A stretch of 64,000 nucleotides of DNA from Blastocatellales bacterium (GTDB taxonomy: Bacteria > Acidobacteriota > Blastocatellia > RBC074): assembly GCA_050249535.1 (NCBI GenBank), contig JBFWQI010000003.1, positions 54,750-118,749 on the forward strand. The letters run 5' to 3'. Shown in pieces: positions 7,855 through 8,093 of this stretch (position 1 is the first letter of the stretch; every line of letters starts with the position of its first letter). The notes under the pieces are model-generated. The model was not told the DNA's origin and made no database searches. It was given only the letters and a program-made list of their open reading frames with translations. A program made the position numbers and the translations under genes.

Positions 7855-8093
7855 GTTTCCGGTTTCCGGTTGTAACCGCTCAGTCCTGTTGCGAAAATAA
7901 ATTAGACGCCAAGGCGCCAAGAAGGCCAAGGGTTTTTCAGGCAATGAAGGTCCGTATCCAGCCGATGTTCGAGCGACGAGTCAGAGGATGCATGAGCCAT
8001 CCCACCCTTAATTCCATCTTGGCCCTCTTGGCGCCTTGGCGTCTAATCTATTTTCGCAACAGGACTGGGCGGTTACAACCGGAAACTGGAAAC
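7855..8093. repeat. Compound MITE-like element: outer about 80-bp terminal inverted repeats (GTTTCCGGTTTCCGGTTGTAACCGC...) enclosing an inner GCCAAG-triplet inverted repeat (TTAGACGCCAAGGCGCCAAGAAGGCCAAG / CTTGGCCCTCTTGGCGCCTTGGCGTCTAA)
   Basis: Left arm 7855-7930 and right arm 8018-8093 are near-perfect reverse complements around an about 90-bp core. The inner arms recur at 26516-26652, 49855-49997 and 57286-57324. Sits between the divergently oriented GT4 and methyltransferase genes and abuts the ATG at 8101. Confidence 0.8.

Follow-up and report, generated by a model that had tools for sequence, protein, structure and literature searches.

We analyzed a 64,000-nucleotide (nt) stretch of DNA from the acidobacterial genome of a Blastocatellales bacterium (contig JBFWQI010000003.1, positions 54,750 to 118,749), which is called the window below and whose own numbering is used throughout; features are given without strand unless one is named. 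Four intergenic loci in the window, designated E1 through E4, carry inverted arms of three GCCAAG/CTTGGC units. The left arm follows the consensus T(T/A)A(A/G)ACGCCAAG-NCGCCAAG-ANNNCCAAG, and the right arm is its reverse complement. Both the number of loci and the consensus agree with the first-pass annotation of this DNA, in which the family was originally reported. The arms are 30-35 nt long and enclose non-coding cores of 73-93 nt, such that whole elements span ~145-180 nt, and none has any protein-coding capacity. With up to two mismatches allowed, the sequence CTTGGCGNCTTGGCG is matched seven times in the window where 0.68 matches are expected. None of 100 shuffles reaches seven, and the maximum is four.

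Several features of this arrangement differ from the initial description. The GCCAAG units of E1 start at positions 7908, 7916 and 7925, which gives unit spacings of 8 and 9 nt, and copies of the arms in metagenomes have a period of strictly 8. The units had been described as spaced by about 9-10 base pairs, or one helical turn, and this spacing had suggested a protein-binding array with one unit per turn; the measured spacing of 8-9 nt supports neither statement. A sigma-54 promoter reading of the TGGC...TGGC pattern was also rejected, given a GG-to-GC spacing of 9-10 nt rather than 12. The sequence at 57286-57324, previously considered a solo arm, pairs with 57165-57199 (35 nt, 83% complementary) to yield a full element at 57165-57327, the left arm of which has decayed through A-to-G changes. 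With regard to gene context, E2 and E4 are located between convergent genes, E3 between co-directional genes (according to the best open reading frame [ORF] model), and E1 between divergent genes. Thus, the single divergent copy stands as reported, whereas the convergent copies number two rather than three. Three of the four copies lie 7-11 nt past a stop codon. As candidate terminators, the elements have weak tails (UUUAAU and UUUUAUU), and the loops of E1, E2 and E4 are 73-93 nt long.

The E1 locus has the most elaborate structure. The element, a unit homologous to E4, is delimited at 7891..8062 by its inverted repeat and by its alignment to E4. Its arms (7902-7931 and 8018-8047) each carry three CGCCAAG units and flank a core at 7932-8017. 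The interval 7902-8047 is nested within outer arms made of GTTTCCG units, which represent another tandem-unit family and are located at 7853..7890 and 8063..8095, the right one ending 5 nt before the ATG at 8101; the entire structure occupies 7853-8095. Viewed as a whole, the span 7855-8093 forms one palindrome, in which the two 78-nt arms (7853-7930 and 8018-8095) are 95% complementary. A tandem repeat of period 7 is present at 7855-7871 in the left outer arm, and the right outer arm includes a promoter-like match to consensus at 8072-8099. The outer 38 nt on each side of E1 resemble the arms of two other elements in the window (34455-34564 and 43722-43948), and the similarity to 34455-34490 can be read directly. 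Removal of the inner element would bring the outer arms together into a virtually loopless hairpin, and the GCCAAG element therefore sits at the apex of an older palindrome.

Related genomes provide a view of this locus over time. In a relative whose adjacent methyltransferase gene product is 97% identical, the right half of the E1 structure (right arm plus outer arm) is retained with one base change; the contigs reach no further than this half. In a more distant relative (L251, methyltransferase 70% identical), the same divergent gap between glycosyltransferase and methyltransferase genes is 504 nt long and carries a different, triple-nested palindrome (L251:4536-4976) that is unrelated in sequence to E1. 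The innermost part of this palindrome consists of two tandem hairpins with GCGACGGAT units, and further tandem-unit hairpins occur in other gaps of the same contig. Palindromes are therefore subject to turnover at a fixed site, the glycosyltransferase/methyltransferase gap.

E2 (26511..26660) has two units in its left arm and three in its right arm, and its palindrome extends outward to GGGGGA/TCCCTC. E3 (49855..49998) is a near-perfect 144-nt hairpin with 70-nt arms and a 4-nt loop that begins 8 nt past the stop codon of a 1426-amino-acid gene. This PKD-like gene also contains long GGC/GCG triplet repeats and 54-nt repeats at 46187-46830, within a low-complexity, glycine-rich coding region. 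At the E2 and E3 sites, the search for relatives recovered only contigs of the same strain. The cores of the four elements had been described as unrelated. Local alignments compared with shuffled controls instead reveal homology between E1 and E4 (z = 9.8), E2 and E3 (z = 5.3), and E3 and E4 (z = 4.2). The GC content is 30% in the E3 core and 45-53% in those of E1, E2 and E4. The alignment of E1 with E4 covers about 172 nt at 75% identity and runs past the arms on both sides, beginning at GCGAA (11 nt beyond the left arm) and finishing at ACAG (about 15 nt beyond the right one). The copies therefore descend as whole units of arms plus core from one ancestor.

The most direct evidence for insertion comes from E4, which occupies a 182-nt segment (57162..57343, arms at 57165-57199 and 57293-57327) that is extra relative to two related genomes. 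The closer relative is represented by assemblies from two separate samples (L244 and L245), which encode a peptidase that is 96% identical to the peptidase upstream of E4, and preserve the gene order of the window: NamZ, GHL10, the peptidase, and a convergent 480-amino-acid gene. In both, only 3 nt separate the convergent genes at the E4 site. The empty site reads TGA-tcattatcgac-ttttgtagag, and in the window alignment the additional bases at 57162-57343 are flanked by ...ATCGAC and TTTT(T/G)(A/T)AGAG... sequences. The segment is missing as well from a more distant relative (L246, 76%), in which the genes overlap at this position; we therefore take the absent state to be ancestral. A separately assembled contig of the same strain (L261) carries an E4 sequence that is 100% identical, and thus the element is not an assembly artefact. 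The first-pass annotation had suggested a comparison of orthologous loci for presence/absence polymorphism, and the absence of E4 from the orthologous site in two relatives provides such a case. E4 entered the 3-nt gap after the split from the relative with the 96% identical peptidase. In doing so, it altered the carboxyl terminus of the minus-strand gene product from HLLYKSR* to HLLYKKRVTVDKSY*, an addition of seven codons.

The arms of the four copies also change together. At four or more variable arm positions, a copy that carries a change in one arm carries the matching change in the other. The variable base of TTA[G/A]AC is G in both arms of E1 and E3, and A in both arms of E2 and E4. At the first base of unit 2, the left/right pair is G/G in E1, A/A in E2, G/G in E3 and C/C in E4, and unit 3 reads GCG/GCG in E2, GTG/GTG in E3, (A/G)GG in E1 and TG(G/A) in E4. 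Such paired changes reflect either selection for pairing or the copying of one arm from the other.

Every copy has the potential to form a long hairpin from either strand, with predicted energies of -56 to -96 kcal/mol and z scores of -3.5 to -18. The predicted RNA folds yield -73.5 (+ strand) and -80.9 (- strand) kcal/mol for E1 (z about -8), -75 (+) and -70 (-) kcal/mol for E2, and -94 to -96 kcal/mol for E3 (z of -17 to -18). E4 has four arm mismatches, all of which are compatible with G-U pairing on the + strand (-67.4 versus -56.1 kcal/mol). When the copies are co-oriented by core homology, the better-folding strand is + for E4 and E2 but - for E1. Because the favored strand is inconsistent, a single functional RNA strand is without support, and a strand-specific G-U bias was rejected as a sign of RNA function since the copies disagree. 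A search of Rfam at the gathering score gave no match in the window elements, and relaxing the threshold to E <= 1 gave two unrelated chance hits elsewhere.

Arms of this type are not confined to the window. The terminal sequence CTTGGCGNCTTGGCGTNTAA, with 18 specified bases, is present at 120 or more metagenome loci. Among the 115 non-redundant matches listed, a third unit adjoins in at least 70 and an inverted partner is found within 400 nt in at least 49. Among the matches listed, paired arms are separated by spacers of about 20 to about 300 nt, and the GC content of the loci varies from 0.36 to 0.73. No homologue of the window cores was found in the roughly 120 arm-bearing metagenome loci listed, which suggests that the arms are widely shared and the cores lineage-specific. 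One soil metagenome holds many compact hairpin copies of the form GGATTGAAACGCCAAGACGCCAAGACGCCAG - loop - CTGGCGTCTTGGCGTCTTGGCGTTTAATCC, and Verrucomicrobiota are represented among the metagenome matches. A scan of a collection of species-representative genomes, which lacks the source genome, returned a single match, in a deltaproteobacterial metagenome-assembled genome (MAG; L001:7238-7525). In this copy the CTTGGCG/CGCCAAG arms are in the opposite order, with CTTGGCG first, and enclose a 157-nt core bearing the inverted motif pair GTCATCCTGAACGAAG.../...CTTCGCTCAGAATGAC; they are themselves nested in outer arms of GTTTTT units. A distant blastn search of a plasmid collection with E1 gave no match, and no paper containing the arm sequence was found in the published literature.

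Two other observations concern where such sequences are encountered. In IMG/VR, three of ~120 two-unit matches in this viral collection (contigs L203, L211 and L229) are accompanied by an inverted partner array no more than 400 nt away, and therefore tandem-unit elements also occur on contigs classed as viral. Separately, Logan contigs from the same species and close relatives (L002, L003, L247-L250 and L262) end inside palindrome arms, some of them beginning 35-85 nt ahead of the methyltransferase ATG, such that the elements fragment short-read assemblies. We rejected these contig breaks as evidence for high copy number, since palindromy alone breaks de Bruijn assemblies.

E1 through E4 belong to a broader architectural class that the first-pass annotation overlooked, which occupies about one third of the intergenic gaps in the window and recurs in other phyla. 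At least five further families share the same plan of inverted arms with two to five tandem units of 7-9 nt and a core of 45-135 nt. Among gaps of 50 nt or more in our own gene model, 11 of 28 carry tandem-unit elements, including four of the six convergent gaps. An element with GTAGAAA units (18155..18300, located between convergent genes by inverted and tandem repeat detection) has a core at 18203-18251 composed of two GC-rich hairpins placed back to back, with the T-rich array downstream of each on the respective strand; its sequence looks like that of a bidirectional terminator in which the tandem arrays would serve as U-tracts. An element with GACAGGATT units of period 9-10 is located at 29485..29630, and the same unit adjoins CTTGGCG arms in three metagenome loci (L049, L067 and L103). 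Upstream of radA is a CAGTTGC/CAGTTTC-unit element (43722..43948) with an internal hairpin of 36-nt arms at 43827-43901, and a GTTTCC/CAGTTGC-unit element (34455..34564) separates a rhomboid gene from a 3-hydroxyacyl-CoA dehydrogenase gene. Between another pair of convergent genes, there is an element with CACGAAGG units (9158..9249), which the relative whose methyltransferase is 97% identical retains apart from an indel of 13 nt in the core.

Unpaired arrays are present as well. An AAGTAGA array at 3709..3740 (+ strand) resembles arrays at 38123-38153 and 59301-59327. All three have about four units and directly adjoin either the end of a gene or a start codon on the minus strand, and those at 3709 and 38123 have the variant order GAAGTA[T/G]AAAGTAGAAAGTAGAAAGTAAAAAG in common. 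A CsrA-sponge reading of ACAGGAT units was rejected, because GGA is missing from the other families and the arms are mutually complementary.

If these elements move, then which enzyme moves them? In agreement with the first-pass annotation, no copy encodes a transposase and none is found elsewhere in the window, whose genes are ordinary chromosomal ones (radA, ccsA/resB, nusB, ribH, mscL, and those for glycosyltransferases, TonB receptors and a duplicated MacB-type permease). The taxon names of homologues place the organism in class Blastocatellia of the Acidobacteriota. Likewise, none of the 150 ORFs located no more than 1.2 kb from metagenome copies proved to be a transposase in a Pfam scan, and no RAYT or TIRYT gene was seen adjoining any copy in the loci inspected. 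Clustering of 1,982 ORFs near metagenome arms, together with the Pfam scan of 150 of them, gave housekeeping families plus PDDEXK_3 as the sole recurrent family. It has four members, three of which come from one orthologous locus and one from a different contig (L023). A possible autonomous copy (L050), with 3.5 kb between its arms, was rejected since the enclosed ORFs, one DNA methylase-like and one without assigned function, include no transposase.

The orthologous locus lies in a Verrucomicrobiota clade, in which a GxxExxY / PDDEXK_3 gene is situated between nuoL and nuoM (L086:547-1211; L025:4428-5010; L253:2386-3044) with one tandem-unit hairpin on each side, the two being mutually inverted. 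Because all occurrences of the near-identical proteins (P0282) represent this one nuoL-nuoM locus, they are orthologues rather than paralogues. In some lineages both gene-proximal arms are of the CTTGGCG/CGCCAAG type and the distal arms of the GCAAAG/CTTTGC type, whereas in others all four arms are of the GCAAAG type. Whole arms therefore change in concert, since in some lineages both gene-proximal arms have switched together from GCAAAG to GCCAAG units. At the remaining locus (L023:3560-5060), the GxxExxY gene is preceded by one GCAAAG/GCCAAG element and followed by four tandem copies of a segment comprising the last ~45 nt of the gene and a ~190-nt element, and the array is translated as a carboxyl-terminal protein tail (...FNAKTPRRRDA). 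GxxExxY genes in four plasmid records have flanks of 2-59 nt and no hairpins, and a general association of this gene with hairpins was rejected on that basis. Thus, the link between GxxExxY and the elements is a lead rather than a finding. In three of the plasmid records (L257, L259 and L260, from Sphingomonas, Bernardetia and Bacteroides), the gene is wedged co-directionally between housekeeping genes, namely fabD/fabG, ade/mannose-1-phosphate guanylyltransferase, and radA/FAD protein, with spacers of 2-59 nt. Judged from sequence, this placement is the pattern of a free-standing selfish gene. The literature on GxxExxY is sparse, and its function is listed as unknown.

With moderate confidence, we favor the interpretation that E1 through E4 are non-autonomous, foldback/REPIN-like mobile palindromes whose enzyme is encoded elsewhere. 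This reading is best supported because it draws together the insertion polymorphism, the descent of arms and core as a unit, and the joint changes in the arms. The elements behave like REPIN, but we file them under neither the miniature inverted-repeat transposable element (MITE) nor the repetitive extragenic palindromic (REP) class, since they show neither target duplication nor a self-palindromic tagged unit. The earlier proposal of a REP/MITE-like dispersed non-coding family is thus upheld with respect to shared descent and the E4 polymorphism, but not with respect to a clean target-site duplication or a cognate transposase. Elements of this kind might spread through a hairpin or single-strand intermediate. 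A trans-acting enzyme encoded elsewhere would then act without leaving a target duplication, by analogy with the role proposed for RAYT/TIRYT tyrosine transposases of the HUH type on REP/REPIN sequences. After insertion, mostly just past stop codons, the hairpin would be tolerated and may act as a barrier or stabilizer at the 3′ end of transcripts.

Some observations weigh against this interpretation. A search for target-site duplications, as suggested in the first-pass annotation, finds no clean duplication at E4 relative to L244, the sole empty site available. The sequence that comes closest to one, ATCTAC, is found 10 nt inward of the right boundary and matches the flanking ATCGAC at five of six positions, and the palindromic TA beside E1 and E4 is indistinguishable from an extension of the inverted repeat. 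E4 is also the single present/absent site found, and both E1 and the 9158 element are conserved in the 97% relative. No transposase has been found, and mobilization is thus proposed by analogy. The arms are common to very different organisms and the window cores are not, a distribution that would also agree with a functional role of the arms as sites in themselves. Some copies from Verrucomicrobiota show a systematic difference between the two arms in each unit (GCAAAG versus CTTGGC), which argues that perfect pairing is not always maintained. Finally, the arms of E4 are only 83% complementary despite an insertion that looks young. Because this decay exceeds what is expected of a young insertion, E4 was probably copied from a master that was already imperfect.

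A broader proposal, to which we give little credence at present, is that paired inverted arrays of 7-9-nt units constitute a distinct, cross-phylum class of bacterial foldback transposon with its own enzyme that would recognize hairpins of repeated units instead of one fixed terminal sequence. Members of this class would include elements of Acidobacteriota, Verrucomicrobiota, the deltaproteobacterial MAG, Geobacter and Xanthomonas. The GxxExxY / PDDEXK_3 nuclease would be one enzyme candidate, and an Acidobacteria-specific, RAYT-like TIRYT would be the more conventional choice.

Other explanations make different use of the same data. The arrays might be duplex binding sites for a nucleoid-associated or global regulator of the IHF/HU type, with pairs serving to bend or bridge intergenic DNA. 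Conservation of the arms but not the cores across organisms, the existence of unpaired arrays, and the fact that E1 fills a divergent promoter region all agree with this idea, as do the paired-site classes of Geobacter metallireducens, some composite, that have been proposed to bind IHF/HU (PMC2700814). Regardless, we consider such sites improbable here. A period of 8-9 nt (or 7 nt) places successive units on different faces of B-DNA, and many specific proteins would be needed for units as wholly different as GCCAAG, GTAGAAA, GACAGGATT, CAGTTGC and CACGAAGG. Moreover, arms and core are co-inherited, E4 was inserted recently, most copies are at the 3′ ends of genes rather than in promoters, and binding is only a proposal both in Geobacter and in this system. 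The location near gene ends is accommodated by a second view, in which the elements are locally evolved bidirectional terminators or mRNA 3′ hairpins, retained at gene ends by selection, that are similar through convergence or gene conversion instead of transposition. Four of six convergent gaps hold a paired element, all copies fold strongly on both strands, the arms end in a weak A-tract/U-tract arrangement (AAAC...GTTT(A/T)A), GGCGTTTTATT is immediately past the stem of E2, and the GTAGAAA element presents a GC hairpin followed by a T-rich array on each strand. However, core homology between distant loci is unexpected under convergence, and the E4 site in relatives, with 3 nt or overlapping genes, offers no precursor hairpin. 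E1 is located between divergent starts, and related hairpins reside at the nuoL-nuoM junction within a nuo operon, a position at which strong termination should be deleterious. Terminator-like consensus matches occur at chance levels (16 versus 15.4, and 13 versus 15.3). We therefore doubt that terminators are the origin of the family, although a terminator role acquired after insertion is compatible with mobile palindromes.

Similarly unlikely, in our view, is an origin as by-products of replication or repair, wherein fold-back template-switch synthesis and unit slippage would generate the palindromes, which would lack both a function and a dedicated mobilizing enzyme, and E4 would be templated filler copied from another element in the course of break repair. 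This scenario makes sense of the absence of a target duplication and of the asymmetric ends of E4, where homology to E1 starts exactly at GCGAA on the left and 8 extra nt are present on the right. The unequal unit numbers in the arms of E2, the concerted whole-arm change in Verrucomicrobiota copies, and the four tandem copies of gene 3′ end plus element in L023 also fit, as does the emergence of the same architecture from unrelated unit sequences. Yet the order of three units with unit-specific variants is conserved in four copies, and the arms must therefore be inherited rather than regenerated. Independent accidents would also have difficulty producing near-identical arms across organisms of 36-73% GC, and the filling of 11 of 28 gaps suggests active spreading. 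It is very improbable that the elements are genes for structured non-coding RNAs in which the core is functional and the arms form a closing stem. Joint changes at arm positions, strong z scores for folding, and the G-U compatibility of all E4 mismatches on the + strand are what such genes should exhibit. Set against these are the lack of an Rfam match at gathering thresholds or E <= 1, the inconsistent favored strand (E1 folds better on the opposite one), the rapid divergence of the cores (30% GC in E3 versus 45-53%), and the lack of a core homologue in the ~120 arm-sharing metagenome loci listed.

If E1 through E4 are indeed mobile palindromes, then the mobilizing enzyme becomes a concrete search target. 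Tandem-unit elements can rewrite the ends of genes, as E4 has done, and they also occupy promoter regions and, in other phyla, the interior of operons. They are relevant to the annotation and assembly of soil Acidobacteria, because the palindromes coincide with contig ends.

Among known systems, REP and REPIN sequences offer the closest behavioral parallels. A REP is an imperfect palindrome of 20-40 nt with a GTAG or CGTC tag, and long inverted repeats flank the RAYT-like TIRYT transposases, one group of which is specific to Acidobacteria (Di Nocera et al., 2013; PMC3733652). Like these sequences, E1 through E4 are short, intergenic, non-coding palindromes located mostly downstream of genes. 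Both kinds of repeat occur singly or as inverted pairs whose spacers vary, and the pair would be the unit that spreads. The likeness extends to the lack of target-site duplication, to paired changes that preserve the hairpin, and to an enzyme that would be encoded elsewhere. Unlike a REP arm, which is self-palindromic and tagged, the arms of E1 through E4 are tandem units of 8-9 nt that are not self-complementary. The termini read TTAGAC or TTAAAC, and the CGTC found in the GGCGTCTAA sequence of E1 and E3 is base-paired and is replaced by CGTT in E2 and E4. Furthermore, no RAYT or TIRYT gene adjoins a copy here among the loci inspected. The elements resemble bacterial MITEs in being small, non-coding, multicopy and intergenic, with terminal inverted repeats and insertion polymorphism. 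They differ in lacking a clean target-site duplication and in having internally repetitive arms that vary in length and unit number, and no insertion sequence with matching ends is known or was found.

The arm architecture has closer precedents. In G. metallireducens, three to five tandem repeats of 7-9 nt are paired on opposite strands at variable distances; some of these sites are composite, ISGme8/9 insert at a fixed distance from them, and IHF/HU binding was proposed without experiment (Aklujkar et al., 2009; PMC2700814). Classes 1-3 of these sites share with the present elements the same architecture, the presence of several unit families per genome, and two-class composites similar to the nested E1. 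Their units are different (GTTGCTYN, TCTCCGTS(Y) and MTYCTGA), and that report contains no evidence for mobility. Xanthomonas genomes each carry 70-75 pairs of convergent GGGAATC heptamer arrays (Rehm et al., 2015; PMC4692102). These too are intergenic arrays of tandem heptamers in close pairs on opposite strands, but their G-rich units, up to 14 per array, were studied as formers of G-quadruplexes, and neither core homology nor evidence for insertion was reported. Beyond these examples, the Foldback (FB-type) transposons of eukaryotes have long inverted arms of short tandem subrepeats with a variable number of units and a variable middle, although they are kilobase-scale elements of another domain, some with transposase genes, and have no sequence relation to E1 through E4. 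The short tandemly repeated repetitive sequences of cyanobacteria are likewise intergenic tandem heptamers from another phylum without sequence relation, and small dispersed repeats of cyanobacteria are reported to insert without target duplication and to nest in other repeats. Paired arrays comparable to those described herein have been reported previously, and left unexplained, in G. metallireducens and Xanthomonas. Unit inheritance, insertion into an empty site, and joint arm change unite these scattered reports under one testable idea, that of a REPIN-like palindrome with tandem-unit arms.

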